Counted from the first letter of the stretch, positions 872-61,122 are shown. The stretch: DNA of 64,000 nt from an uncultured Candidatus Saccharibacteria bacterium (GCA_964616145.1 CAZTRD010000001.1:68024-132023), one strand, 5' to 3'. Made by a program: numbers and translations. The notes: generated from the sequence alone by a model not told the origin.

Positions 872-3800
872 ATGGCAATGAATTTCTTTGAATCGGAAAA
901 ACAGATAGCAGAGTATTGGAAAGAAAACAATACATTCCAAAAGTCTTTAGAAAAAAAGGGCAAGAATTTTGTTTTCTATGAAGGCCCACCCACTGCTAAC
1001 GGAAGGCCCGGGATTCATCATATTGTTGCCAGGGCCTTTAAGGATTTAATCTGCAGATACAAAACCATGCAGGGTTTTGTGGTTCAAAGAAAAGCTGGAT
1101 GGGACACCCATGGTTTGCCAGTTGAGATAGAAACGGAAAAGAAATTGGGGCTTCGCTCTAAAAAGGAGATAGAACAGTACGGAATAGATAAATTCAATAA
1201 GAAATGCAAAGAATCGGTCTGGCAATATGTTGATGATTGGAAAGATCTGACCCAAAAGATCGGATATTGGCTGGATATGGATAATCCGTACATTACATAC
1301 GATCCTTTATATATGGAAAGCGTATGGTGGATTATCAAACAAATAGCCGATAAGGGCTTACTATATCAGGGGCATAAGGTGGTGCCATATTGTCCTCGTT
1401 GCGGAACAGCTCTTTCTTCTCATGAAGTTGCCCAGGGATATCAGACGATAAAAGAACCCTCGATTTTTATCAAATTTAGATTAAAGAAAAACAACCATAA
1501 AATATTTTCAAAATATCCTGATTTGAATTTGCTTGTTTGGACGACAACTCCATGGACGCTTCCAGCTAATGTTGCCATAGCCATAAATGAGAAGATTAAA
1601 TATATATTGATTTCTTTAAATAATGAGAAATATATTCTGGCTGAGTCAAGAAAAGAATTCATCAAGGATAAATTTGAGATTTTAGAAACATTTTCAGGAA
1701 AGGAATTAAAGGGTTTAGAATACGAGCCGTTATTTGGGAATGATTTTGATTTCGGGAAACAAAAAAACATATATAAAATACTGTCTGCTGATTTTGTCAG
1801 CACGGAAGACGGAACAGGATTGGTTCATATTGCTCCGGCATTCGGAGAAGATGATATGAATTTGATACAGGAATGGAATTCAAAGAATGATGACAAATTC
1901 CCTATCATTTTAACCGTAGATTTGGAAGGAAAATTCAAGCCAGAGATTACTAATTGGGCCGGAATGTTTGTAAAAGAAGCAGATCCATTGATCACTAAAT
2001 ATCTGCAAGGGAAGAGTAAGATATTTTTAATTCAGGAATATGAGCATGAGTATCCATTCTGCTGGAGATGTAAAACTCCTTTGCTGTATTATGCAAAAGA
2101 GAGTTGGTTTATTAAAATGAGCGCTTTAAAAGAAAAACTCCAGAAGAATAACGAGAATATTAACTGGATTCCTGGCCATGTAAAAACAGGTCGTTTCGGG
2201 GAGTGGTTGGAAGATATAAAGGACTGGGCAATTTCCAGAGAAAGATATTGGGGAACACCATTACCAATATGGAAATGCGAATGCGGGCATAAAGAAATTA
2301 TTGGTTCAAGAGAAGATTTAGCTGAACAGAAATTCAGCGATAATAAATATTTTGTCGTAAGGCATGGGCATTCTCAAAATATTGTAGAAGATTTACACTC
2401 CTCTTTCCCAGAGATGAAGGAGCTCCCTTTGACTGAAAAAGGAATTAAAGAAGTAAAGGTTATTGCTAAAAATCTAAAAAGAGAAAAAATAGATATTATT
2501 GTTTCTTCTGATATTTTGAGAACAAAACAAACAGCAGAGATTATTGCCAAGGAATTAGGATTAGAAATACAATATGACGCTCGTTTGAGAGAAACCGACT
2601 CAGGAGAATTTAACGAAAAACTTCGCAAAGATGTGATTAATTTCTTCACCCAGGAGGAAATAAACTCCCCACCCAAAAGAGCCCTAAAGAGATTTAATAA
2701 ATCCTTTCCCGGGGGAGAAACATACAGGCAAGTTAGGATAAGGCTTCTAGAGTTTTTTCGGGAAGCAGAAAAAAAATATCAGGGAAAGAATATTTTACTC
2801 GTATCCCATATCGCTTGTATATATTTAATGGAATCATCATTTAAGGGCCTGGGAGTGAAAGAAAGTGCGGATTACAGGGAAGAGTTTGATCTTAAACCGT
2901 CTGAAATTAAAAAATATGAATTTAAGGATTTTCCGTATGATGAAAATGGAGAAATAGATTTGCACAGACCATATATTGATCAGATAGAATTTAATTGCCC
3001 AAAATGTGGCAAGAAGATGAAAAGGATATCCGAAGTTATTGATTGCTGGTTTGATTCCGGTTCTATGCCGTTTTCTCAATATCATTATCCTTTTGAGAAT
3101 AGAAAGTTGATAGATAAAAAGGAACAATTCCCAGCTGATTACATTTCAGAAGGAATAGATCAAACCAGAGGTTGGTTCTATACCCTTTTAGCTATTTCTA
3201 CACTGTTAGGGAATGAATCACCATATAGAAATGTGATTGCTTTGGGGCATGTTTTGGATCAAAAAGGGCAGAAGATGTCTAAGAGCTTAGGAAATATTGT
3301 GGATCCCTGGCAGATGATAGAAAAATATGGGGCAGATGCTCTGCGCTGGTATTGTTTTACGGTTAATCAGCCAGGAGATCCTAAGCTATTCAATGAGAAT
3401 GATTTAGATCAGGCATTAAAGCAATTCCTTATGACTTTTTGGAATTGTGCTGTATTCTTAAAAACATATTCATCAGAATCAATTTCTCCAAAACCAATTG
3501 TTTCCAATATCTTGGATAAATGGATATTATCCAGATTAAACAGCGTTATTCAACAAGCCATCCTTAATCTGGATACATACGATATATCTACTGCTGGGAG
3601 ATTGATTCAAGATTTTGTTATCAATGATTTGTCTTTATGGTATGTCAGAAGATCCAGGCAAAGATTCCAACAGCCAACAAGCGGAAAGGAATTAAAAGCA
3701 TCCTGTTCCATGTTATCTTTCGTATTAATCCAAACAGCTAAGATTTGCGCTCCATTTGTTCCATTTTTAAGTGAAAGAATATATCAGGAATTGGATATGA

Positions 3801-4399
3801 TAGACAGCGTGCATTTACAGGATTGGCCAAAGATTGAAAAGAAAATGATAAATGCTGATTTGGAAAAAGAAATGGCAATAATTAGAGAAATAGCCAGTCT
3901 TGGTCTAAATCTTAGAAATCAGGCCGGGATAAAGGTAAGACAACCTTTAGGAGAGATGAAGGTGTTTGTTAAAGACAGAAAGCTTGATAGGGAATGCTTA
4001 AACATATTATCTGAAGAATTGAATGTAAAAAACATTTCAGAAGTTAAAGAAATCGTTCAAGAAAATAATTGGATTATTGGAGAAGCTTTGGGGATTAGGA
4101 TATCTTTGAATACAATAATATCAGATGAATTGAAAGAAGAAGGAACATTAAGAGATATTGTAAGGTTTATCCAAGACAGCAGGAAGAAATCAAATTGTAC
4201 TCCAAAAGACAATGTAATTCTTAATGTTGTAGTTAGCGAAACTTTAAAATTAATCTTTATCAAAAACGAGACAGAAATCCTTGCCCAGACAAGAAGCAAA
4301 GAAATTAAGTATTTTAACCAGATATCTGCCAAAACATTTGCATTTCAGCAAGAAGGAAAGATTGGAGAGGATAATGTTTGGTTGGGAATAGAGAAATAG
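872..4399 (+). CDS. ileS: Isoleucyl-tRNA synthetase, type 2, carrying a ~200-aa internal domain insertion
   Basis: 1175 aa. Class I HIGH-type motif (PPTANGRPGIHH), KMSKS (KMSKSLGN), the WISRERYWG editing/CP1 context, and Zn-knuckle CPRCG / CPKCG. Confidence 0.95.
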   Translation: MAMNFFESEKQIAEYWKENNTFQKSLEKKGKNFVFYEGPPTANGRPGIHHIVARAFKDLICRYKTMQGFVVQRKAGWDTHGLPVEIETEKKLGLRSKKEIEQYGIDKFNKKCKESVWQYVDDWKDLTQKIGYWLDMDNPYITYDPLYMESVWWIIKQIADKGLLYQGHKVVPYCPRCGTALSSHEVAQGYQTIKEPSIFIKFRLKKNNHKIFSKYPDLNLLVWTTTPWTLPANVAIAINEKIKYILISLNNEKYILAESRKEFIKDKFEILETFSGKELKGLEYEPLFGNDFDFGKQKNIYKILSADFVSTEDGTGLVHIAPAFGEDDMNLIQEWNSKNDDKFPIILTVDLEGKFKPEITNWAGMFVKEADPLITKYLQGKSKIFLIQEYEHEYPFCWRCKTPLLYYAKESWFIKMSALKEKLQKNNENINWIPGHVKTGRFGEWLEDIKDWAISRERYWGTPLPIWKCECGHKEIIGSREDLAEQKFSDNKYFVVRHGHSQNIVEDLHSSFPEMKELPLTEKGIKEVKVIAKNLKREKIDIIVSSDILRTKQTAEIIAKELGLEIQYDARLRETDSGEFNEKLRKDVINFFTQEEINSPPKRALKRFNKSFPGGETYRQVRIRLLEFFREAEKKYQGKNILLVSHIACIYLMESSFKGLGVKESADYREEFDLKPSEIKKYEFKDFPYDENGEIDLHRPYIDQIEFNCPKCGKKMKRISEVIDCWFDSGSMPFSQYHYPFENRKLIDKKEQFPADYISEGIDQTRGWFYTLLAISTLLGNESPYRNVIALGHVLDQKGQKMSKSLGNIVDPWQMIEKYGADALRWYCFTVNQPGDPKLFNENDLDQALKQFLMTFWNCAVFLKTYSSESISPKPIVSNILDKWILSRLNSVIQQAILNLDTYDISTAGRLIQDFVINDLSLWYVRRSRQRFQQPTSGKELKASCSMLSFVLIQTAKICAPFVPFLSERIYQELDMIDSVHLQDWPKIEKKMINADLEKEMAIIREIASLGLNLRNQAGIKVRQPLGEMKVFVKDRKLDRECLNILSEELNVKNISEVKEIVQENNWIIGEALGIRISLNTIISDELKEEGTLRDIVRFIQDSRKKSNCTPKDNVILNVVVSETLKLIFIKNETEILAQTRSKEIKYFNQISAKTFAFQQEGKIGEDNVWLGIEK
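2345..2950 (+). other. In-frame histidine-phosphatase (PGAM/CobC/SixA-like) domain inserted in IleRS
   Basis: YFVVRHGHSQN (RHG catalytic motif at 2360-2368), LTEKG, VSSDILRTKQTAEII, RETDSGEF, GGETY and LLVSH. The domain lies between IIGSREDLAEQ and DLHRPYIDQ, which are separated by only a short linker in type-2 IleRS as I recall it. Confidence 0.75.
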
Positions 4400-4965: not shown

Positions 4966-6612
4966 ATGAGAAAATCAAAAAATAGAATATATCTGATTAT
5001 TGCTATTCTGTGCGTTATCCTAATAATCTTGGGAATTTGGTTTTGGAACAGAAATTCATATTCCAAGGAAACTCTTAAATTGGAGATTTTAGCTCTTGAT
5101 TCAGTAGCAGTGGGGCAGGATATGGAATATATAGTTAAATTAAAGAACAACGGAGATATCAGACTAGATAGTCCTGTTTTGACTTTTGAATTCCCCCAAT
5201 ATTCCATTCCTGAAGACGGAGGGATATTGAGAAAAACCATTGAGGGAGAAGAATTAGGCCTGGCTATTTATCCAGGGGCGGAAAAAACCTTTAAATTCAA
5301 AGGGAAACTTTTTGGACAGACAGGAGAGGGAAAAGAGGCCACTGCAATGCTTACTTACCAACCAAAGAATCTCACTGCCAAATATGTTTCTAAAACAACT
5401 CATTTAACCACAATTTCTAATGTTCCTATTACTTTTGATTTTGATATTTCTTCAGAAGTGGAATCGTCTAAACCATTAGATTTCTCTTTAAACTATTTTT
5501 CCAGCTTAAGTTTTGCTTTAAATGATATTACGATAAAAGCGGCATATCCTTCAGGATTTGTTTTTACTTCCAGCACTCCCAAAGGACTATCTCAGAATGA
5601 ATGGAGAATAAAGACATTAAATAGTGCTCAAGGAGGGAGGATAAAGATAAGCGGGGCTCTTTCCGGAGAAGTGGGAGATTCAAAAACCTTTTTAGCGGAG
5701 TTTGGCATATGGGTTAATGGAGAATATGTGATATTAAAAAAGGCCACAAAAGATATTTCTTTAACAGAACCCTCTATATATCTGGATCAGATGATAAACG
5801 GAGTTCAGGAATATTCCGCTAATCAGGGAGACAATCTGCATTATCAGATTATCTTCAGAAACATCGGAGATAAAGCAATGCAAGATTTATTCTTGACCGT
5901 AAGACTTAAAAGCGATCTGCTTGATTATACTTCTTTGAAAGCTCCTGACGGACAATTTACAGTAGGCGATAATTCTATCATGTGGGATTCAAGAAAAATA
6001 TCTTCTTTGAAATACTTGGATGCCGGAGAAGAGGGGCAAGTGGAGTTTTGGATTAATCTGAGCTCGGATAAAATCAGTTCTTCCAAAGAACCTCAAATTG
6101 AAAATGAGGTACGGCTTGGCCAAACCAAAAAGACCTTCTATACCAAGATCAATTCTAAATTAGATCTTGTTCAGGAATTGCATATTGATGATGAATTATT
6201 CGGCAGCGAAGGGCCGTTGCCTCTAAAGGTTAATCAAGAATCAACTCTTACTGCTTTCTGGAGATTGAAGAACTATTACAGTGCTTTAAAAGACATTAAG
6301 ATCAAGGCAGTTTTACCATCGTATGTTTCTTTAACTGGCCAAGTGAATCCTCAAGAGATTACCTTTGATTCGCAGACAAGGGAATTAATGTGGAATATTT
6401 CTTCCTTGGCCCAAGGAGAAGGAGTTGCTTCTCCAAAGATGGCAGGATTCCAAATTAAATTTACGCCAACAATAAACCAGAAAGGAACATCTGTCCCTAT
6501 CTTGACCAATGTGACTATTACGGCGCAAGATGACGTTACCGGAGATACAATTAATCTGACTATTCCTAATTTGGAAACCAACTATTTAGGCCAGAATGGA
6601 ACTATTCAATAA
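4966..6612 (+). CDS. Membrane-anchored hypothetical protein with repeated beta-sandwich (DUF11/CARDB-like) modules
   Basis: N-terminal TM segment (IYLIIAILCVILIILGIWFW). Recurring pattern of the type 'G..L.Y.I...N.G' (GQDMEYIVKLKNNGD, GDNLHYQIIFRNIGD). Confidence 0.7.
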   Translation: MRKSKNRIYLIIAILCVILIILGIWFWNRNSYSKETLKLEILALDSVAVGQDMEYIVKLKNNGDIRLDSPVLTFEFPQYSIPEDGGILRKTIEGEELGLAIYPGAEKTFKFKGKLFGQTGEGKEATAMLTYQPKNLTAKYVSKTTHLTTISNVPITFDFDISSEVESSKPLDFSLNYFSSLSFALNDITIKAAYPSGFVFTSSTPKGLSQNEWRIKTLNSAQGGRIKISGALSGEVGDSKTFLAEFGIWVNGEYVILKKATKDISLTEPSIYLDQMINGVQEYSANQGDNLHYQIIFRNIGDKAMQDLFLTVRLKSDLLDYTSLKAPDGQFTVGDNSIMWDSRKISSLKYLDAGEEGQVEFWINLSSDKISSSKEPQIENEVRLGQTKKTFYTKINSKLDLVQELHIDDELFGSEGPLPLKVNQESTLTAFWRLKNYYSALKDIKIKAVLPSYVSLTGQVNPQEITFDSQTRELMWNISSLAQGEGVASPKMAGFQIKFTPTINQKGTSVPILTNVTITAQDDVTGDTINLTIPNLETNYLGQNGTIQ

Positions 6613-6616
6613 ACAT

Positions 6617-7942
6617 ATGGATTTAATGGAGAAAATAATATCATTAAGCAAAAGAAGAGGTTTTATCTTTCCATCCTCTGATATATACGGAGGTTTCGGT
6701 TCCAGCTATGATTTCGGACCCTTAGGTGTTGAATTGAAAAGAAATATTAAAGAGGCCTGGTGGAAAGATATGGCTCAATTGCATTCTTCTGTTGTCGGAT
6801 TGGATGCGGCAATACTCATGTCTCCTAAGGTTTGGGAGGCCTCAGGCCATTTAAGCGTAGGATTTGCAGATGAATTGGTGGAATGCAAAGAATGCCATAG
6901 AAGGTTCAGATTAAGTGAATTAAAAGAGAAAAAATGCCCGGAATGCAAAGGAGAGCTGACAGATCCGAAACAATTTAATCTGATGATGAAAACATTTATT
7001 GGTTCTGTTGAAGATGAAAGCGCTGTCTCATACCTTAGAGCTGAGACATGCCAGGGAATATACGTTAATTTTAAAAATGTTTTGGATTCAATGAGAATGA
7101 AACTTCCTTTTGGCATTGCTCAGATTGGAAAATCATTTAGAAATGAAATAACTACGAAGAATTTCATTTTCAGAATGAGAGAATTTGAACAAATGGAAAT
7201 GCAATATTTCTGCAATCCAAAGGACGCGGACAAATGGTTTGAGTATTGGAAAGAAGAAAGATTGAAATGGTATAAGGGATTAGGACTGAATATGAAGAAC
7301 CTTAAGATACATGAAGTGCCGGAAGAAGATAGGGCCCATTATGCCAAAAGACAAATAGACATATTATATAATTTTCCTTTTGGCTGGCAGGAAATTGAAG
7401 GAATTCATAACAGGGGGGATTGGGATTTATCCCGTCATTCCAAATACAGCGGAGCTGATCTGTCATATACTGATCCGGAAACAAAAGAAAAATACATTCC
7501 ATATATTGTTGAGACATCTGTTGGTGTAGAAAGAAGCTTGCTGGCTTTTCTATGCGATGCTTACCAAGAGGTAGAAGGAGGGAGAACCACAACTACCGAA
7601 TCAACCAAAGAGATAGAAACAGTTTTGAAATTCCATCCCGGGTTGTCTCCTGTTAAGATTGCAGTTCTGCCATTGCTGAAGAATAAGCCAGAATTAATTA
7701 AGAAATCAGAAGAAATATTTGAAATATTATCCAAAGAATTTATCTGCCAATATGATGAGGCAGGAGCTATAGGAAGAAGATACAGAAGGCAAGATGAAAT
7801 AGGAACGCCATTTTGTGTAACAATAGATTTCGATTCTTCGGAGAAAAACGATGTTACTGTGAGAGACAGGGATACAATGGGGCAAGAAAGAATCCAAATT
7901 TCTGAATTAGTTAATTATTTCAAAGAAAAAATTAAAATATAG
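6617..7942 (+). CDS. glyQS: Glycyl-tRNA synthetase (dimeric class II type)
   Basis: MDLMEKIISLSKRRGFIFPSSDIYGG..YDFGPLG and class II motifs (FRNEI, GVERS). Start moved to ATG 6617, just after the upstream stop at 6612. Confidence 0.93.
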   Translation: MDLMEKIISLSKRRGFIFPSSDIYGGFGSSYDFGPLGVELKRNIKEAWWKDMAQLHSSVVGLDAAILMSPKVWEASGHLSVGFADELVECKECHRRFRLSELKEKKCPECKGELTDPKQFNLMMKTFIGSVEDESAVSYLRAETCQGIYVNFKNVLDSMRMKLPFGIAQIGKSFRNEITTKNFIFRMREFEQMEMQYFCNPKDADKWFEYWKEERLKWYKGLGLNMKNLKIHEVPEEDRAHYAKRQIDILYNFPFGWQEIEGIHNRGDWDLSRHSKYSGADLSYTDPETKEKYIPYIVETSVGVERSLLAFLCDAYQEVEGGRTTTTESTKEIETVLKFHPGLSPVKIAVLPLLKNKPELIKKSEEIFEILSKEFICQYDEAGAIGRRYRRQDEIGTPFCVTIDFDSSEKNDVTVRDRDTMGQERIQISELVNYFKEKIKI

Positions 7943-13596: not shown

Positions 13597-14411
13597 TATT
13601 TGATACTCATGCCCATGTTAATTTCAGGGTTTTTGACAATGATAGGGACGAAGTAATCAAGAAATGCCTGGATAGAGGTATTTCTATCATTAATGTTGGA
13701 AGCAATTTTAATACGTCTGAAATAGCTGTTGATCTGGCTAATCAATATCAAGAAGTATATGCTTCTGTTGGTTTGCATCCGATTCACGTAGATAAGAGCA
13801 TTTTAAGAGTGAAAGATGAAGAAGAGGGTATTAATGAAGAATCCAGTTTTGATTATAACAAATACAAAGAATTAGCTAGGGATAGAAAAGTGGTGGCAAT
13901 TGGAGAAACAGGACTTGATTACTATTACCGTCCCAAAACTAAAACCAAATTAGCAGAATTCAAGGCAAAACAAAAAGAAGTTTTGATAAAACAAGTTGAA
14001 TTAGCAGAAGAATTAAATCTTCCTATCATTTTTCATTGCCGAATGGCTCATGATGATTTGATAGAGTTCTTAAAGGATAAAAAGCTGAGAGGAGTAATAC
14101 ATTGCTTTACCGGGGATTTAAATCAAGCTAAAGAATATATACGAATGGGATACTATTTAGGATTTAATGGAATTATCTTTAAATTGAATCTAGATGAAAT
14201 TATCAAAGAAATCCCGATAGATAGAATTCTTTTAGAAACAGATTGTCCGTATCTTACTCCGTCCGGATATGCTACAGATAGAAATGATCCGATAGGGGTG
14301 GAGTATGTGGCAAAAAGGGTAGCAGAGATTAAAAAGGTAGATCTGACAGAACTTATTAACAAGACGAATGATAATGCGATAAACCTATTCGGATTGGACA
14401 AAATACTATAA
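13593..14411 (+). CDS. tatD: TatD family metal-dependent hydrolase/DNase
   Basis: MIFDTHAHVNF, GETGLDYY, HCR/HCFTG and ETDCPYL motifs. ATGA overlap with metG. Confidence 0.88.
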   Translation: MIFDTHAHVNFRVFDNDRDEVIKKCLDRGISIINVGSNFNTSEIAVDLANQYQEVYASVGLHPIHVDKSILRVKDEEEGINEESSFDYNKYKELARDRKVVAIGETGLDYYYRPKTKTKLAEFKAKQKEVLIKQVELAEELNLPIIFHCRMAHDDLIEFLKDKKLRGVIHCFTGDLNQAKEYIRMGYYLGFNGIIFKLNLDEIIKEIPIDRILLETDCPYLTPSGYATDRNDPIGVEYVAKRVAEIKKVDLTELINKTNDNAINLFGLDKIL

Positions 14412-14456
14412 TTGTGATATCATATAATTACCTGACACCATAAGGAGGTGATTCTA

Positions 14457-14561
14457 ATGAAATGGTGTCCTGAGAAAAGGAAAGCGTTCCCGATCCTTGA
14501 GAGAGTCGGGAATGCGCTCGTTCGTCAGTTCGCCCCTCTCGCTGGCCGGCCTTTGGGCTAG
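14457..14561 (+). CDS. Candidate 34-aa small ORF inside a GC-rich structured island (MKWCPEKRKAFPILERVGNALVRQFAPLAGRPLG)
   Basis: Perfect RBS AAGGAGGTGA 6 nt upstream of the ATG, presented in the loop of hairpin GACACCAT/ATGGTGTC. TATAAT at 14423-14428. The unit could instead be a non-coding RNA. Confidence 0.3.
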   Translation: MKWCPEKRKAFPILERVGNALVRQFAPLAGRPLG

Positions 14562-14592
14562 CCAGCGAGAGGGCATACAACCTAACTATTAT

Positions 14593-14618
14593 AAACAGGT
14601 CTTCCCTGTTTTTGTTTT
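14593..14618 (+). terminator. Intrinsic terminator of the 14.4-kb GC-rich unit
   Basis: AAACAGG-TCTTC-CCTGTTT followed by TTGTTTT. Confidence 0.7.
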
Positions 14619-14629
14619 GGGATATACTA

Positions 14630-14657
14630 TTGACAAGATTATTTCTATAAGTAGGAT
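14630..14657 (+). promoter_or_regulatory. Promoter of the tRNA-like pair (TTGACA-16 nt-TAGGAT)
   Basis: TATTGACAAGATT is identical to the -35 context of the ncRNA promoter at 9114. The -10 fits TAnnnT and lies 11 nt before the tRNA 5' end. Confidence 0.5.
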
Positions 14658-14668
14658 TATAGATATCA

Positions 14669-14758
14669 GCCGGGGTGGTGGAAAAGGGCAGACACGCACA
14701 AGTCTTCACGATTGTGTGAGGATGATCCCTCGTGTAGGTTCAAATCCTACCCTCGGCA
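14669..14758 (+). tRNA. Type II (Leu-like) tRNA-like gene with a 10-nt anticodon loop GUCUUCACGA and no encoded CCA
   Basis: Acceptor GCCGGGG/CCTCGGC plus A73. D arm GTG-GAAAAGGGCAGA-CAC. Anticodon stem CACAA/TTGTG (14697-14701/14712-14716). Long variable arm GAGG-ATGATC-CCTC. T arm GTAGG-TTCAAAT-CCTAC. It aligns arm for arm with tRNA-Leu(CAA) at 25554-25640 except in the loop. Confidence 0.6.
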
Positions 14759-14777
14759 ATAGTACGCTTTGCACTCC

Positions 14778-14847
14778 GGTGACGTAGCTCAATTGGTAGA
14801 GCACTGGGATAAATCCCGGGGGTGGGGTTCGATTCCTCCCGTCACCT
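14778..14847 (+). tRNA. Class I tRNA-like gene (Phe-like body) with a shortened 6-nt (or 4-nt) anticodon loop AUAAAU and no encoded CCA
   Basis: Acceptor GGTGACG/CGTCACC. D arm GCTC-AATTGGTA-GAGC. Stem CTGGG/CCCGG (14804-14808/14815-14819) encloses only ATAAAT. T arm TGGGG-TTCGATT-CCTCC. Total body is 69 nt. Confidence 0.55.
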
Positions 14848-14860
14848 TTAGTGCGGTTCA

Positions 14861-14900
14861 GCGGTCCAGGGCAATGCTTCTGGACCGCTTGCCCTTTTTG
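14861..14900 (+). terminator. Intrinsic terminator between the tRNA-like pair and leuS
   Basis: GCGGTCCA-12 nt-TGGACCGC followed by TTGCCCTTTTTG. It ends 35 nt before the leuS ATG. Confidence 0.7.
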
Positions 14901-14934
14901 TAATAGAAAGGTAATTGATATAGAATTAAATATT

Positions 14935-17370
14935 ATGGCTTCTTACGATTTCAAGACAATTGAAAAGAAGTGGCAAGAAAACTGGGATAAAAAAGGGATT
15001 TTTTTGGTTGATGAGAAATCAAAAAAACCAAAAGCATATATTCTAGATATGTTTCCATATCCTTCCGGAGCCGGATTGCATGTTGGTCATCCAAGAGGAT
15101 ATATCGGAACAGATATCATCGCCAGATTCATGAAGATGAAAGGATATAATGTTTTGCATCCCATGGGATGGGATGCATTTGGTCTTCCGGCAGAAAACTA
15201 TGCCATCAAAACAGGCATTCATCCGGAAATATCTACTAAAGAAAACATCCATAAGTTTAAAAAACAAATGGATCTGATTGGTCTTTCATATGATTGGTCC
15301 AGGGAAGTAAATACATCAAATCCGAGTTATTACAAATGGACTCAATGGATATTCCTTTTGCTTTTTAAGAAGGGTTTAGCATATCAAGCGGTTTTGCCAA
15401 TCAATTGGTGTCCGTCTTGCAAGACAGGGTTAGCTAATGAAGAAGTAGTGAATGGAAAATGCGAGAGATGCGGGACAGAAGTTACCAAAAAGAATATCAG
15501 ACAATGGGTATTGAAGATTACTGCATATAGCCAGGAGCTATTAGATGGATTAGAGGGATTAGATTGGCCGGAGAAGATTAAAGAAATGCAGAGAAATTGG
15601 ATAGGGAAATCAGAAGGAGCTGATATTAATTTTCAGGTTAAAGATTCTGATGTGAAGATCAAAGTTTTTACAACTAGGCCCGACACTATTTTTGGAGCCA
15701 CATTCCTTGTTTTGGCTCCAGAGCATCCGATATTAGATAGTATTATTAGTAAAGAAAAGCTAGAAGTTAAAAAATATCAAGAAGAGACAAAAAAGAAATT
15801 AGATATAGATAGGCAATTGGAAGATAAAGAAAAAACAGGAGTATTTATCGGTTCCTATGCTGTTAATCCTGCAACAGGAAAAGAAATACCGATATATATA
15901 GCTGACTATGTCCTTCCATATTACGGCTACGGAGCAATAATAGCAGTTCCTGCTCACGATCAAAGGGACTGGGATTTTGCTAAAAAATATGGACTGGAGA
16001 TTATACAAGTAATTCAATCCCAAGAAAACCTTGAGAGGGTATATATCGGAGAAGGAGATTTGATGAATTCCGGAAAGTTTGATGGAATAAATTCTTCTAA
16101 AGCCCAGAAAGAAATAGTTTCTTGGTTGAAGAAAAAAGGTTTTGCCGATTTTACTGTTAACTATAAATTAAGGGATTGGGTATTCTCCCGCCAGAGATAT
16201 TGGGGAGAACCAATACCTTTGGTATTTTGTCCTCATTGCAAAGAAGAAATTGAATCAGGCAAATACAAGAAAAATGAATTCAGCAAAGGAGAAATATTAA
16301 ATCCTGGCTGGATTGCTTTGGAAGAAAAAGATTTACCTTTAACATTGCCAGAGGTTGATAAATTTGAACCTACTGGGACAGGGGAATCTCCCTTAATCAA
16401 TGTGGCATATTGGATAAAAACCAAATGTCCTAAATGCGGGGGAGAGGCAAAAAGAGAAACAAATACCATGCCTCAATGGGCAGGCTCTTGTTGGTATTTT
16501 ATCCGCTATGCTGATCCTGATAATGAAAAGGAAATTATTGATAGGAAAAAAGAAAAGAAATGGTTGCCTGTTGATTTCTACATTGGAGGAGCAGAGCATG
16601 CAGTTTTGCATCTCTTGTATTCCAGATTCTGGATCAAAGTATTAAAAGAAGAAAAGATCATTTCTTTTGACGAGCCATTTCTTAAATTAAGAACCATTGG
16701 TCTGATTCTAGCTCCAGATGGACAAAAGATGTCAAAATCAAGGGGTAATGTGATAAACCCAGATGATATTATTGAAGAATATGGGGCTGATGCTTTCAGA
16801 ATCCATGAAATGTTCATGGGCCCATTTGATCAGCCAATCAACTGGGATACAAAAAGCATTCTGGGAGCTAAAAGATTTTTAGAGAAGGTATATGCTGCAT
16901 CTAAAAACATTTCTGATAAATCGTCTTTTAAAACAGGAAAGTTGTTGCATAAGACGATAAAGAAAGTAACAGAAGATATACAAGAGCAGAAATTCAATAC
17001 TGCTATTGCTGCAATGATGGAATTCATTAATAATATTGATCAGATATCTTTTGAAGATTTCAGAAAATTCCTTAAGATATTATCAGTATTTGCCCCCCAT
17101 ATATCGGAAGAATTGTATAAGCCAGAGGTTTCCATATTCAATGAATCTTGGCCAGAATACAACAAGAATCTTATCATCGATGAAAAGATAGAAATAATAG
17201 TGCAAGTGAATGGAAAATTAAGAGATACAATTTCTGTTAATCTTGACTCTAATGAAGAAGAAGTCAAGAATCTTGCTTTACAATCAGAAAAGATCCAGAA
17301 ACATCTGGAAGAAAAAGAGATTGGAAAGACAATCTTTGTTAAAAACAAATTAATTAATCTAGTAACATGA
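14935..17370 (+). CDS. leuS: Leucyl-tRNA synthetase
   Basis: MASYDFKTIEKKWQENW, the MFPYPSG..LHVGH class I HIGH-type motif, KMSKSRGN. The tracked ORF start at 14851 overlaps the tRNA and terminator, so ATG 14935 is used. Confidence 0.94.
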   Translation: MASYDFKTIEKKWQENWDKKGIFLVDEKSKKPKAYILDMFPYPSGAGLHVGHPRGYIGTDIIARFMKMKGYNVLHPMGWDAFGLPAENYAIKTGIHPEISTKENIHKFKKQMDLIGLSYDWSREVNTSNPSYYKWTQWIFLLLFKKGLAYQAVLPINWCPSCKTGLANEEVVNGKCERCGTEVTKKNIRQWVLKITAYSQELLDGLEGLDWPEKIKEMQRNWIGKSEGADINFQVKDSDVKIKVFTTRPDTIFGATFLVLAPEHPILDSIISKEKLEVKKYQEETKKKLDIDRQLEDKEKTGVFIGSYAVNPATGKEIPIYIADYVLPYYGYGAIIAVPAHDQRDWDFAKKYGLEIIQVIQSQENLERVYIGEGDLMNSGKFDGINSSKAQKEIVSWLKKKGFADFTVNYKLRDWVFSRQRYWGEPIPLVFCPHCKEEIESGKYKKNEFSKGEILNPGWIALEEKDLPLTLPEVDKFEPTGTGESPLINVAYWIKTKCPKCGGEAKRETNTMPQWAGSCWYFIRYADPDNEKEIIDRKKEKKWLPVDFYIGGAEHAVLHLLYSRFWIKVLKEEKIISFDEPFLKLRTIGLILAPDGQKMSKSRGNVINPDDIIEEYGADAFRIHEMFMGPFDQPINWDTKSILGAKRFLEKVYAASKNISDKSSFKTGKLLHKTIKKVTEDIQEQKFNTAIAAMMEFINNIDQISFEDFRKFLKILSVFAPHISEELYKPEVSIFNESWPEYNKNLIIDEKIEIIVQVNGKLRDTISVNLDSNEEEVKNLALQSEKIQKHLEEKEIGKTIFVKNKLINLVT

Positions 17371-17798
17371 AATTAGATATTGGACAGAGAGATAAACGAA
17401 AATTAGCAAAAAATATTATTTTTATAATTAATATAATACTGTTTTTGATAACAATGTCTTTTCCAGAATTAATTTTTGAACCAAAATTTGAATCTAACAA
17501 CGGCTTTGTCATTTTACCATGCTTCCTTTTTACCCTTTACGTTGCCGTAGGGATGCCCTTATTGCTGGGAGGGCATATTATAGATCTATTAAAAAAGAAG
17601 GATAAAGGATTTACATTTCTCGGAGCGATTCTATACCCCGCCTTAACATATCTGGTTTTGTCGGCATGGGGATCTTTAACCGAAGAAATGGAAGGTCTGT
17701 CAATAATTTTCCTAATGGTTATATTCATACCCCTATATTTTATCGTTGGTTTAGTTTCCGCTATTGTAGAGTCTCGGAGAAATAAAATTAAACCTTAA
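17367..17798 (+). CDS. Hypothetical integral membrane protein (143 aa)
   Basis: Four predicted TM segments. ATGA overlap with leuS. Confidence 0.6.
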   Translation: MKLDIGQRDKRKLAKNIIFIINIILFLITMSFPELIFEPKFESNNGFVILPCFLFTLYVAVGMPLLLGGHIIDLLKKKDKGFTFLGAILYPALTYLVLSAWGSLTEEMEGLSIIFLMVIFIPLYFIVGLVSAIVESRRNKIKP

Positions 17799-17802
17799 CT
17801 TC

Positions 17803-20800
17803 ATGTGCGGAATTGTAGGATATATTGGTAAAAAAGAAGCATTGCCCATCATTATTGATGGGCTTAAGCGCCTTGAATACCGCGGATATGATTCTGCCGG
17901 TGTTGTTGTATTAGAGAAACAAGCATCCTTGGTTAAAGTAAAAGGAAGAGTAAAGGATTTAACTGATAAATTAGATGGTCAAAAGATTTTAGGAAGTTGT
18001 GGTATTGGGCATTGTTTGCCACCAAACGTTTTAATTCAGTTGGCTGATGGCAGAATTCTAGAGATTTCAAAAATTACAGATAAAGATAAAATTTTATGCT
18101 TAAATCCAAAGACATTAAAATTTGTGCCTGGGAAGGTCAAGGTTTTTAAGCACGAATCGCCAGATTATATTTATAATATCAAAACAAAGTCAGGCTTTTT
18201 AAATGCGACTGCTGCTCACAAGATGCTTATTTTCTCTGATGGAATTATTCAGAATAAAGTTGTTAAAGATATAAGGAAGGGAGATTTATTAATTTTTCCC
18301 AAACAAATAGAGATAACTGGTAAAAAGATAAATTTCCAAAAGTGTTTTGCCAAAAGATATTATGAGCTTAGCGATAGAGCTGTGGACATGATTAGGTCTG
18401 CCATAAAAGAGAAATCGTTAACCTTGTCCGAACTAGGCCGTAAGATAAAAATTAGCGATAAATATTTACGTCATATCATCAATAATGATCGAAATATCCG
18501 AGAAGATTACCTCAAAAAGATTTTATTTCACCTAAACGTCTTTTTTGATAAAAAAGAATTTGTTCCTGTAGACACGATCCATGGAAAGTTTATAAAACTT
18601 CCAGCTCAAAGCTCGGAGAAATTAATGCAGATTTTAGGATATCTTCTGGGAGATGGCACGGTTCAACCCAAGACAATAAGGTTTAAAGATTTAAATAAGC
18701 AATTATTACAACATTATCAAGGCCTTATAAATAAGGTATTCAATGTAAGGGGAAGGGTGGTATCTCAGAAAGATACTGCTGCATACCTATTAGAAGTTAA
18801 CAGTCAATATTTATCTCGTTGGCTTAAAGTTAATATTATCGACAGAAGTGATGATTTTTTTGGAGAAATCGGGAAACTACCCAACAAAGAAATAGCAGCA
18901 TTTCTAAGAGGATTATTCGATGCAGAGGGGTGCGTTAGTTTGCAATCTAAACAAATAACCCTCAGAATGACAAATCAACGATTAGTAAAAACTGTCCAGA
19001 TGCTATTGCCGCGTTTTAATATTTTATGCTCTTTCACGAAAACAACAAGAAAAAATAAAAATTGGTCAGATGTTTTTAATATCTCTATTAATAATTTCGA
19101 TGGTACTAAAAAATTCCTAGATATTGTGAGGGTTTCTTCACAAGAAAAGCTAAAAAGATGTAAGGCAATTGTAAAACAGATGGAGTTAGATCAATTAAAT
19201 TTTTCTTTTAAATATCTACCCTTTACCAAGAAAGAAATATACGAAAGATATATAAATCCTTTGAAAATTCCGCACGGGAAAATAAAAAAGTTGCTGGGAA
19301 ACGCAAACAATGATTTTCTCACTGGCAAAAAATTCAAAGAGTTGATAGATTATATTATAAAGAATTATCCCGATAAGAAGATAGAAAAAGAGCTCAAAAT
19401 GTTTTCTGAGGGAAATATTGTATTTCAGCCAGCGCAAGAGATCAAGAAAATCAAATCACAGAACAAATACTTGTTTGATATAGAAGTTTCTCCACATGCT
19501 AATTTTATTGCAGATGGTTTTCTAACTCATAATAGTAGATGGGCGACTCATGGAGAACCATCAGAGGTTAATGCTCATCCTCATTTCGATTGTAAAAAAG
19601 AGATATTTGTGGTTCATAATGGAATACTTGAAAACTACGTTTCTCTTAAAGAGAAATTAATAGAGAAAGGACATAAATTTGTATCTGAAACAGATACAGA
19701 AGTTATCGCCCATTTAATAGAGGAATTCTTTGATGGAAATTTAGAAGATGCTTTAAGACGAGCATTAAAAGAAATGGTTGGGGCCTATGCTATTGCGGTA
19801 GTTTCTATAAAAGATCCTGGGAAAATAGTTTTTGCTAAAAAATCCAGTCCATTATTGGTTGGTATCGGCGAAGGAGAAAACTTTATCGCTTCTGATGCGC
19901 CAGCCATATTAGGGAATACAAAAAAGGTAATATATTTAGAAGACAATGAATTGGGAGTAATTACTGCCAATGATTTTAAAATCATTGATTTAGAAAATAA
20001 TAGAATAGAAAAAAAGATTTCTCTTTTGGAATGGGACCTAGAGGAAGCAGAGAAAAAGGGATATCCTCATTTCATGTTTAAAGAAATAATAGAAGAAGGG
20101 GATGCAGTTAGGAATGCTTTAAGAGGAAGAATCCTTCCAGAAGAAGGAGCTATCAAATTTGGAGGATTAGAAGATATAGAAGAAAAATTAAGAAATGTTG
20201 AGAGGATTACAATTATTGCTATGGGGACAGCATATCTGGCAGGATTTGTTGGCAAGTACATGTTAGAAGAATATGCTCAAATGCCTGTTATGTTAGAGAA
20301 TGCATCTGAATTTAGATACAAAAAATCAATTATTGATAAGAATTCAGTAGTAATTGCAGTTTCTCAATCTGGAGAAACTGCAGATACTCTTTTTGCTGTG
20401 AAAGAGGCAAAAAGACAAGGAGCTTTAACCCTGGGCATTATTAACGTGGTAGGTTCCAGTATAGCTAGAGAAGTGGACGCCGGGATATATAACCATGCGG
20501 GACCAGAGATAGGAGTGGCCTCAACTAAGGCCTTTATCTCCGAGTTAGCCGTGTTTGCCCTACTATCTGTATTCTTGGGTAGACAAAGAGGCATGTCTCC
20601 TGTAATGGGCAAAAGAATCATCCAGGAGCTTAACGAGATCCCATCCTTGATAGGGGGCATATTTAAACAAGAAGATAGGATAAAAGAACTAGCTAAGAAG
20701 TACTATAAACATGAAGATTTCTTCTATTTAGGAAGGAAATACAATTATCCTATTGCCTTAGAGGGAGCATTAAAATTAAAGGAAATTTCATATATCCATG

Positions 20801-21147
20801 CAGAAGGATATCAGGCAGGAGAAATGAAGCATGGCCCAATTGCCATGATTGATGAGAATTTCCCTTCAGTTTGTATTGTCCCCAAGGATAGTGTCTATGA
20901 AAAGAATTTCTCTGGCATTCAAGAAATTAAAGCAAGAAAAGGATTAGTAATTGCTATTACTACAGAGGGGAATGATGAATTAGATAACATTGCAGATGAT
21001 GTTTTGTTTATCCCAAAAACTTTAGAAATGTTAACTCCTTTAGTTTCTGTAATTCCTTTACAGCTTTTTGCGTATCATGTGGCTGTGTTGAGGGGGAATG
21101 ATGTAGACAAGCCAAGAAATTTGGCTAAGTCGGTTACCGTGGAATAA
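17803..21147 (+). CDS. glmS: Glutamine--fructose-6-phosphate aminotransferase, intein-containing precursor
   Basis: N-terminal MCGIVGY (catalytic Cys2). Two SIS domains and a C-terminal KPRNLAKSVTVE. The exteins sum to 607 aa once the insert is removed. Confidence 0.93.
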   Translation: MCGIVGYIGKKEALPIIIDGLKRLEYRGYDSAGVVVLEKQASLVKVKGRVKDLTDKLDGQKILGSCGIGHCLPPNVLIQLADGRILEISKITDKDKILCLNPKTLKFVPGKVKVFKHESPDYIYNIKTKSGFLNATAAHKMLIFSDGIIQNKVVKDIRKGDLLIFPKQIEITGKKINFQKCFAKRYYELSDRAVDMIRSAIKEKSLTLSELGRKIKISDKYLRHIINNDRNIREDYLKKILFHLNVFFDKKEFVPVDTIHGKFIKLPAQSSEKLMQILGYLLGDGTVQPKTIRFKDLNKQLLQHYQGLINKVFNVRGRVVSQKDTAAYLLEVNSQYLSRWLKVNIIDRSDDFFGEIGKLPNKEIAAFLRGLFDAEGCVSLQSKQITLRMTNQRLVKTVQMLLPRFNILCSFTKTTRKNKNWSDVFNISINNFDGTKKFLDIVRVSSQEKLKRCKAIVKQMELDQLNFSFKYLPFTKKEIYERYINPLKIPHGKIKKLLGNANNDFLTGKKFKELIDYIIKNYPDKKIEKELKMFSEGNIVFQPAQEIKKIKSQNKYLFDIEVSPHANFIADGFLTHNSRWATHGEPSEVNAHPHFDCKKEIFVVHNGILENYVSLKEKLIEKGHKFVSETDTEVIAHLIEEFFDGNLEDALRRALKEMVGAYAIAVVSIKDPGKIVFAKKSSPLLVGIGEGENFIASDAPAILGNTKKVIYLEDNELGVITANDFKIIDLENNRIEKKISLLEWDLEEAEKKGYPHFMFKEIIEEGDAVRNALRGRILPEEGAIKFGGLEDIEEKLRNVERITIIAMGTAYLAGFVGKYMLEEYAQMPVMLENASEFRYKKSIIDKNSVVIAVSQSGETADTLFAVKEAKRQGALTLGIINVVGSSIAREVDAGIYNHAGPEIGVASTKAFISELAVFALLSVFLGRQRGMSPVMGKRIIQELNEIPSLIGGIFKQEDRIKELAKKYYKHEDFFYLGRKYNYPIALEGALKLKEISYIHAEGYQAGEMKHGPIAMIDENFPSVCIVPKDSVYEKNFSGIQEIKARKGLVIAITTEGNDELDNIADDVLFIPKTLEMLTPLVSVIPLQLFAYHVAVLRGNDVDKPRNLAKSVTVE
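18013..19533 (+). mobile_element. Intein (507 aa) with a LAGLIDADG homing-endonuclease domain, inside GlmS
   Basis: It interrupts the conserved GIGH|(S)RWATHG motif. It starts with Cys (CLPPNVLIQL) and ends ...LTHN followed by Ser+1. Block B-like TAAH. Two LAGLIDADG motifs (LGYLLGDGTV, LRGLFDAEGCV). Confidence 0.88.
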
Positions 21148-25553: not shown

Positions 25554-25640
25554 TGGTGCCCGGGGAGGGAGTCGAACCCTCATGAGATAAATCTCACACG
25601 ATTTTGAGTCGTGCGCGTCTGCCAGTTCCGCCACCTGGGC
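25554..25640 (-). tRNA. tRNA-Leu (anticodon CAA), CCA encoded
   Basis: Minus strand reads GCCCAGG-TG-GCG-GAACTGGCAGA-CGC-G-CACGA-CTCAAAA-TCGTG-(variable arm GAGATTTATCTC)-GAGGG-TTCGACT-CCCTC-CCCGGGC-A-CCA. Confidence 0.92.
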
Positions 25641-60897: not shown

Positions 60898-60954
60898 GAC
60901 AAGGGAAAGAAGAAAAAAATAATTAAATTCCTTTCCTTTTTATTCAATCATCTG

Positions 60955-61043
60955 GCTTTCCTTCAAAAAGTTGTTGAGCGCGATAGGTAGGGAACAAAGT
61001 TAATTTGTCTACCGATAGCGCTGAACAACTAGAGAGGGAAAGC
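60955..61043 (+). promoter_or_regulatory. Long imperfect hairpin (~89 nt) containing an ECF-type promoter motif GGAAC-17 nt-CGATA
   Basis: GCTTTCC...GGAAAGC (60955-60961/61037-61043) encloses GTTGTTGAGCGCGATAGGTAG / CTACCGATAGCGCTGAACAAC (60970-60990/61009-61029). GGAAC lies at 60991-60995 and CGATA at 61013-61017. Confidence 0.35.
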
Positions 61044-61122
61044 GATATATAAAATAAAGGTCGAACATAAATTAAAAATAAGTTATGAGCCAAAGACTCA
61101 TAACGAAAGAAAAAATATTAAA

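Follow-up and report, generated by a model that had tools for sequence, protein, structure and literature searches.

Two tandem tRNA-like genes with aberrant anticodon loops lie upstream of leuS in a member of the Patescibacteria

Regulators of aminoacyl-tRNA synthetase genes that mimic or sense tRNA, such as the thrS operator of E. coli and the T-box leaders, are located inside the mRNA leader that they regulate and are conserved. Some tRNAs serve as aminoacyl donors, including the Staphylococcus tRNA-Gly used for cell-wall bridges and the Leu- and Phe-tRNAs used by L/F-transferase or cyclodipeptide synthases; these known donors have normal anticodon loops, keep their identity elements and have a partner enzyme present. 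The tRNAs of the SufB2/sufD type and the yeast mitochondrial tRNA-Thr have exactly one extra nucleotide in the anticodon loop, are chargeable and take part in decoding. For the B. cereus tRNAOther, a single gene flanking a genomic island, there is experimental evidence of a regulatory function (PMC3399842). Here we describe two tandem genes, located next to a leucyl-tRNA synthetase gene, in which bodies of the Leu and Phe types are combined with anticodon loops of 10 and 6 nt.

The DNA analysed, hereafter the window, is a 64-kb stretch of low GC content (~36%) from a member of the Patescibacteria (CPR), the nearest named relatives of its LeuRS belonging to 'Candidatus Pacebacteria' and to Patescibacteria MAGs. 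ARAGORN called three tRNA genes in it: tRNA-??? at 14669-14758 (+), with 'anticodon' ttca, tRNA-??? at 14778-14847 (+), with 'anticodon' aa, and a canonical tRNA-Leu(CAA) at 25554-25640 (-), which was the only canonical tRNA found in the window; no tRNA-Phe(GAA) was seen there with this program. The first two are separated by a spacer of 19 nt (14759-14777). Two calls of the '???' class among three are unusual, given that this class was not represented among the approximately 400 ARAGORN calls made in 36 phage loci with tRNA genes. All three genes gave full-length matches to the Rfam family RF00005, whose gathering score is 29 bits, with 36.0 bits for tRNA-like 1, 45.1 for tRNA-like 2 and 51 for tRNA-Leu(CAA); in a local search with the same model the E-values of the two tRNA-like genes were 7.8e-6 and 2.4e-8, respectively. 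According to both programs, each of the pair forms a cloverleaf with acceptor, D and T arms and the conserved tertiary nucleotides, U8 among them. Neither has the 7-nt anticodon loop, with U33, a 3-nt anticodon and a purine at position 37, that is expected of a decoding-competent elongator tRNA. CCA is encoded in neither of them and is encoded in the canonical Leu gene. The original prediction, made by reading the sequence, had described the positions and arms of both genes, their abnormal loops and this distribution of CCA, and all of it was borne out by the sequence and by the ARAGORN and Rfam results. It had also raised, and doubted, a single sequencing error. Such an error is rejected: the 541 nt from 14400 to 14940 of the window recur with 100% identity in two ENA assemblies that come from different samples, with no polymorphism among the three, so the odd loops are real sequence and not an assembly indel.

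tRNA-like 1 (14669-14758, + strand) has the body of a type II tRNA-Leu. Its anticodon stem, CACAA/UUGUG (14697-14701/14712-14716), closes the 10-nt loop GUCUUCACGA (14702-14711), and its size changes amount to 3 additional nt in this loop and 1 in the D-loop. Every helix pairs, and A14, G18G19, U54-U55-C56, A58 and A73 are kept. The gene can be aligned arm for arm with tRNA-Leu(CAA) of the window, with 61 identical columns, among them those of the anticodon stem and of the beginning of the variable arm, which sustains the earlier assignment of this gene as Leu-like. A pattern built on its 5' half was found in 10 viral contigs, nine times inside a called tRNA-Leu gene; in the tenth contig (L035) there was no tRNA call at that position. 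With 36 bits, the Rfam score of tRNA-like 1 is 15-18 bits below the 51-54 bits of normal Leu tRNAs. The canonical tRNA-Leu(CAA) itself has an acceptor-stem mismatch, A5 x C68.

Folding predictions suggest that the enlarged loop would be partly structured, with pairs U35-A43 and C36-G42, a bulged G34 and 5 unpaired nt in the preferred local fold. An extended stem that leaves a loop of 6 nt had been proposed for this gene; in these predictions the more stable reading has a 5-nt loop instead. For the whole molecule, the cloverleaf is predicted at -29.4/-30.1 kcal/mol versus -38.8 for a minimum-energy fold that is not a cloverleaf, so the non-tRNA fold would be favoured by 8.7 kcal/mol. This prediction can be traced to the complementarity between the enlarged loop and the 5' strand of the variable arm. 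The cloverleaf of the canonical tRNA-Leu(CAA) is at least as stable as its predicted minimum-energy fold. In bacteria, A73 and A14 are the main determinants of leucine identity, and leucylation does not need the anticodon arm (PMC9976931). Since both identity nucleotides are present and the altered arm is the dispensable one, tRNA-like 1 could still accept leucine if folded as a tRNA. A search for targets complementary to the 10-nt loop gave nothing beyond chance in the window.

tRNA-like 2 (14778-14847, + strand) has a body of the tRNA-Phe type, as judged by Rfam, alignment and folding, and is 70 nt long versus 73 in a normal tRNA-Phe. The anticodon stem CUGGG/CCCGG (14804-14808/14815-14819) surrounds the 6-nt loop AUAAAU (14809-14814), where an A-U pair is predicted to be able to close a UAAA tetraloop. 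The variable region has only 3 nt, GGG (14820-14822), the first pair of the T stem is mismatched (U49xC65) with all other pairs intact, the discriminator is U73 instead of A, and G34 is absent. The first 26 nt of the gene, with A or G allowed at one position, matched 26 viral contigs, and 25 of these matches fell inside a called tRNA-Phe(GAA), no tRNA being called at the remaining one (L013); the Phe-like assignment made previously thus holds. The score of 45.1 bits is 28 bits below that of a phage tRNA-Phe(GAA) that shares the 5' half (73.3 bits), and blastn of the phage records gave merely generic tRNA-Phe similarity, of around 79%. The loop AUAAAU would most simply correspond to the normal Phe loop AU-GAA-AU minus G34. 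This departs from the proposal that nucleotide 37 is missing, which is not the simplest reading for this gene, as loss of G34 yields AUAAAU directly. A scan of viral contigs for the normal Phe arm, CUGGG-NUGAAAN-CCCGG, returned 48 matches, of which one was a genuine tRNA-Phe (L080) and the others chance; it seems to add weakly to the G34-loss model. The strictly conserved identity elements of tRNA-Phe are G34, A35, A36 and A73 (PMC9976931). Two of these four, G34 and A73, are not present in tRNA-like 2, and because of the absence of G34 and the change to U73 its aminoacylation appears unlikely. An 11-nt identity between its anticodon arm and codons 14-17 of leuS is in the same sense and at the level expected by chance.

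The two genes are framed by elements of their own. A promoter-like site, TTGACA-16 nt-TAGGAT (14630-14657, + strand; a pattern match from a consensus scan, with 10/12 positions), ends 11 nt 5' of tRNA-like 1, and an intrinsic-terminator-like hairpin with 12 pairs and a T tract (14860-14899, + strand; fold of -25 kcal/mol, z = -4.2) closes the unit. Downstream lie a second promoter-like site, TTGTAA-17 nt-TAGAAT (14898-14926, + strand), identified by consensus match and by alignment with the regions upstream of leuS in two relatives, and leuS itself (14935-17370, + strand), which encodes a leucyl-tRNA synthetase of 811 aa with the Pfam domains tRNA-synt_1, tRNA-synt_1_2 and Anticodon_1, and whose homologues, from Patescibacteria and Pacebacteria, are named leucine--tRNA ligase. 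A duplication of the promoter, suggested by lenient blastn, was discarded, as MAFFT does not align 14630-14657 with the leuS promoter.

Since the pair ends at its own terminator and the leuS promoter-like site is located downstream of it, the pair lies outside the leuS leader. Membership in a leuS mRNA leader or T-box was rejected on these grounds and because this promoter-like site is conserved in relatives in which the pair is missing; Rfam searches of the window gave no T-box match. Two other candidate families were also rejected, YrlA (RF02553), with 20 bits versus a gathering score of 69 for a partial match that simply bridges the T arm of tRNA-like 1 and the D arm of tRNA-like 2, and mascRNA, with an Rfam score far below threshold or absent.

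On its 5' side the unit starts immediately after a structured element (14425-14615, + strand), which contains an ORF of 34 aa (14457-14561) and a terminator-like hairpin (14593-14611). The element, located between TatD and leuS, is conserved in the relatives L003 (1890-2062) and L004 (2771-2962). In this highly structured element, the loop of one hairpin displays the invariant AGGAGGUGAU and an AUG, followed by the 34-aa ORF, MKW...RQF(A/V)PLAGRP, whose last codons form the 5' arm of a long hairpin, with the terminator-like hairpin after it. Synonymous changes in Leu codons of this 5' arm are compensated in the non-coding 3' arm, and 12 of the 48 pairs predicted by RNAalifold, on an alignment of three sequences only, show compensatory changes. 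No Pfam or Rfam match was obtained for the element, which could encode a small protein on a structured mRNA, act as a leader peptide/attenuator or represent an unrecognised small RNA.

The genes 5' of this element are, in order, those for an M16 peptidase, an AI-2E transporter, a methyltransferase of the TP_methylase family, MetRS and TatD, and those 3' of the pair are leuS, a conserved ORF of 143 aa and an intein-containing GlmS. Housekeeping genes and many aminoacyl-tRNA synthetase genes make up the wider window. The density of translation genes in positions 1-34000 is unusual, with ArgRS (partial), IleRS, a class II synthetase (6596-7942), MetRS, LeuRS, HisRS and peptidyl-tRNA hydrolase. 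In the isoleucyl-tRNA synthetase-like protein (872-4399, 1175 aa) a histidine phosphatase domain (His_Phos_1) is found at residues 494-665, inserted into the class I catalytic domain. The 143-aa ORF (17367-17798) overlaps the leuS stop codon (ATGA) and has no significant Pfam match, the sole weak one being Acyl_transf_3 (E = 0.016). Its position is kept in L004, with 143 aa, and in L003 and L050, which have ORFs of 151/153 aa matched by place alone. An intein bearing LAGLIDADG and HTH domains interrupts GlmS (GATase + SIS, 17803-21147); at this position both L003 and L004 have a gene call of 458 aa, cut by the end of the locus, which, like its counterpart in the window, starts only a few bases from the ORF next to it. 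At the other end, in 60900-64000, no ORF of at least 100 aa is listed, GC content rises up to 0.44 and there is no Rfam rRNA match; an ORF running off the end of the window may explain this gap.

Five related leuS loci, similar or identical to the window in gene order, were fetched with their flanks through LeuRS homologues of 66-88% identity: L003 (88%, GCA_028717625.1), L004 (75%), L050 (70%), L051/52 (66%) and L053-55 (68%). The order MetRS-TatD-leuS is kept in L003, L004 and L050. ARAGORN made no tRNA call at any of the five loci, and at E<=1 Rfam gave no match of any kind there, tRNA remnants included. The same loop geometry, which the original prediction had proposed to look for in orthologous loci, is thus absent from them, along with any tRNA or remnant of one, while the leuS promoter-like site is kept in relatives without the pair. 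In L004 the upstream element's terminator is followed directly by the leuS promoter region, so positions 14616-14899 of the window behave as an insertion. In L003 the same site is filled by an unrelated ORF of 211 aa (2132-2767) with no Pfam match; its left junction (ATATACTA...CAAG) is shared with the window, and its right junction consists of the 3' half of the terminator-like hairpin plus the leuS promoter (14879-14933 versus L003 2946-3000; 85% identity over 55 nt by blastn). These differences between L003 and L004 within shared flanks indicate that the intergenic site is a variable position for cargo or insertions.

Pattern scans, in which exact matches were required, were run on viral contigs, JGI metagenome contigs and GTDB species genomes with patterns that fixed the arms and left the loop length open, fixed the loops and left the stems open, or covered the 3' halves. 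The exact arm of tRNA-like 1 had no match in viral contigs, and its stems with any loop of 6-11 nt had none in the metagenomes, a collection that does not contain the window's own sequence. The D arm and stem of tRNA-like 2 with any loop were equally without matches in the genomes, a collection from which the window's own sequence is also missing, and the loop ATAAAT behind a Phe-type D arm was found neither in genomes nor in viral contigs. The 3' halves of both genes gave no matches, or unrelated Tyr/Thr tRNAs, in viral contigs. Nine metagenome matches to the Leu D arm followed by N5 and GTCTTCACGA were discarded as chance; they are not tRNA-like and receive no ARAGORN call. These negatives would be meaningful for a widespread conserved family and appear weak for close relatives, because exact matches were needed and both large collections lack the window's own sequence, which fits the stem patterns scanned there and was returned from neither. 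As far as the data go, the pair would be confined to the species of the window. Our literature search yielded no account of such loop geometries from Patescibacteria; a paper on group I introns (PMC13011429) is not relevant to changes of 3 nt.

Starting from the observed anatomy and lesions of the pair, its absence from relatives and its authenticity as sequence, we favour, with an even chance of being right, the reading that these are lineage-specific relics of a tRNA-Leu and a tRNA-Phe gene, disabled for decoding and possibly still transcribed. They would occupy a variable intergenic position immediately 5' of the leuS promoter, and both would have been disabled for decoding by indels, if we infer the direction of the mutations correctly. 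Gene 1 would have gained 3 nt in its Leu anticodon loop and 1 nt in the D-loop, and gene 2 would have lost one nucleotide of the Phe anticodon loop, most simply G34, and two at the junction between the variable region and the T stem, its discriminator being non-Phe. The unit is probably still transcribed from its own sigma-70-like promoter and ended by its own terminator. Given their intact acceptor, D and T arms, the transcripts may remain substrates of tRNA-processing enzymes, presumably without taking any part in translation.

The absence of the pair from the five related leuS loci, and of a homologue in any scan, argues for relics, as does the fact that gene 2 departs from a working tRNA-Phe in four ways, namely the loop with its missing G34, U73, the variable region and the T stem. 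The competing non-tRNA fold and the low Rfam score of gene 1 point in the same direction, as do the variable nature of the insertion site and the ordinary use of UGA as a stop codon in the window. Descent from tRNAs, lesions incompatible with decoding, scores 15-28 bits below those of normal counterparts and the lack of conservation, within the limited sensitivity of the scans, are all features of pseudo-tRNAs and are all found here. Several facts do not fit this reading so easily. Gene 1 has every helix intact, gene 2 every pair but one, and the tertiary nucleotides are kept, so that the damage is centred on the anticodon loops and not randomly spread; a near-consensus promoter-like site and a strong terminator are retained; compact patescibacterial genomes tend not to retain dead DNA; and there is zero polymorphism among the three assemblies. 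The original prediction had left the choice between unusual decoders, non-translational tRNAs, synthetase-binding mimics and decaying pseudogenes, and the evidence favours the last of these. It had also held that plain pseudogenes would be indicated by a lack of conservation together with a supply of all isoacceptors by other genes; the first part, the lack of conservation, is what was found, at the five leuS loci and in the scans. If the genes are relics, they call for caution, as annotation pipelines will report 'tRNA-???' or count both as tRNAs, and they would show that even in a compact genome of the Patescibacteria a variable spacer can harbour two tRNA genes that were disabled recently.

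The intact helices and tertiary nucleotides, with changes concentrated in the anticodon loops, would be expected if the pair were instead functional as tRNA-like RNAs that do not decode, a reading that we consider unlikely but the main rival of the first. Gene 1 would be leucylated or bound by LeuRS and excluded from decoding, and could titrate LeuRS, have a regulatory role or supply Leu to a reaction outside the ribosome; gene 2 would be an uncharged, tRNA-shaped partner. A73, A14 and the type II body of gene 1 are what LeuRS needs, the pair is equipped with a promoter-like site and a terminator of its own and directly adjoins leuS, the compactness of these genomes speaks for function, and a regulatory pseudo-tRNA acting outside translation has a precedent in B. 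cereus tRNAOther (PMC3399842). However, the pair is not conserved at the five related leuS loci and no homologue was found in any scan, leuS has its own conserved promoter-like site downstream of the terminator of the pair, gene 2 lacks Phe identity elements, and the non-tRNA fold of gene 1 competes strongly with the cloverleaf. Furthermore, annotation of the 28 ORFs from 7 to 34457 revealed no tRNA-dependent transferase, be it an L/F-transferase, a Fem-type transferase or a cyclodipeptide synthase. Were the RNAs functional, they would represent one of the rare examples in bacteria of tRNA bodies put to use outside decoding, beside the matching synthetase gene. A more specific proposal, that the pair is a newly evolved small-RNA unit in which a Leu-chargeable gene 1 and an uncharged gene 2 buffer or report on LeuRS, or feed leucine to a non-ribosomal acceptor, seems to us doubtful; a more extreme variant of it would make gene 2 the only Phe-type tRNA of the genome, decoding with a 6-nt loop.

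The unit could also have arrived as a cassette of promoter, two tRNA-like genes and terminator from a phage or mobile element, which we judge improbable, and which could be combined with either the relic or the functional reading; the cassette might be what is left of an attachment site, or a decoy in the shape of a tRNA for toxins that target tRNAs. The different cargo in L003 and the empty site in L004, with shared flanks, agree with an import, as do the TTTTTGT present at both junctions and the matches of the 5' halves to phage tRNA-Phe and tRNA-Leu genes. Yet T-rich junctions can equally be explained as terminator tails, the ORFs annotated from 7 to 34457 include no integrase, transposase or phage gene, the anticodon stem and variable arm of gene 1 are closest to the host tRNA-Leu(CAA), and the scans of viral contigs with exact arms and 3' halves returned nothing relevant.

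That the two genes are unusual decoders appears very improbable. Gene 1 would read UGA or a quadruplet (UCA/UUCA), inserting Leu, and gene 2 would read UU(U) through its shortened loop, in some form of programmed suppression or frameshifting. ARAGORN can assign 'anticodons' of 4 and 2 bases, and there are laboratory and organellar tRNAs that decode with loops of 8 nt (e.g. PMC3113583, PMC8464047), but an expanded anticodon goes with an 8-nt loop, a 4-base anticodon and a chargeable body, and the loops here are of 10 and 6 nt, with favoured local folds predicted to leave 5 and 4. In the window, UGA is an ordinary stop that ends 13 of the 50 ORFs, including leuS, so a Leu tRNA reading it through UCA would be harmful, and the ORFs, read with the standard bacterial code (code 11), are long and free of interruptions, with no recoding target among them. 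Charging of gene 2 is unlikely given U73 and the absence of G34, and the pair is not conserved. Phe codons represent around 5% of the codons of the window and one third of them are UUC, so that a proper GAA tRNA would be required elsewhere in the genome; an 'AAA' tRNA with a 6-nt loop could not serve as the Phe decoder. Finally, sequencing or assembly indels in two normal tRNA genes, which have in their favour only the prior that such errors can yield odd loop lengths, can be dismissed almost completely, the lesions being several, outside homopolymer runs and identical over all 541 nt in the window and in the two ENA assemblies from different samples.

When the locus is compared with the systems mentioned at the outset, each shares some feature with it. 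Like the tRNAs of the SufB2/sufD type and the yeast mitochondrial tRNA-Thr with its 8-nt loop (PMC3113583), the pair combines a normal body with an anticodon loop that is not of 7 nt; it differs from them in its loops of 10 and 6 nt, in having one gene without identity elements and in the lack of a recoding signal. With the aminoacyl-donor tRNAs it would have in common a diversion from the ribosome, and the pairing of Leu with Phe is suggestive in this respect; unlike them, it has no partner enzyme among the ORFs annotated between 7 and 34457, and gene 2 has lost Phe identity. A tRNA-shaped RNA beside the matching synthetase gene, here a Leu-like RNA next to leuS, recalls the thrS operator and the T-boxes, from which the pair is set apart by its own terminator, by the separate promoter-like site of leuS downstream, by the lack of a T-box match and by the relatives that do without it. 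Two tandem genes known from sequence alone, with abnormal loop lengths and no island genes around them, also differ from B. cereus tRNAOther; as in that case (PMC3399842), the pair shows a recognisable cloverleaf that would act or persist outside translation, is restricted to a strain or lineage and lies beside variable DNA.
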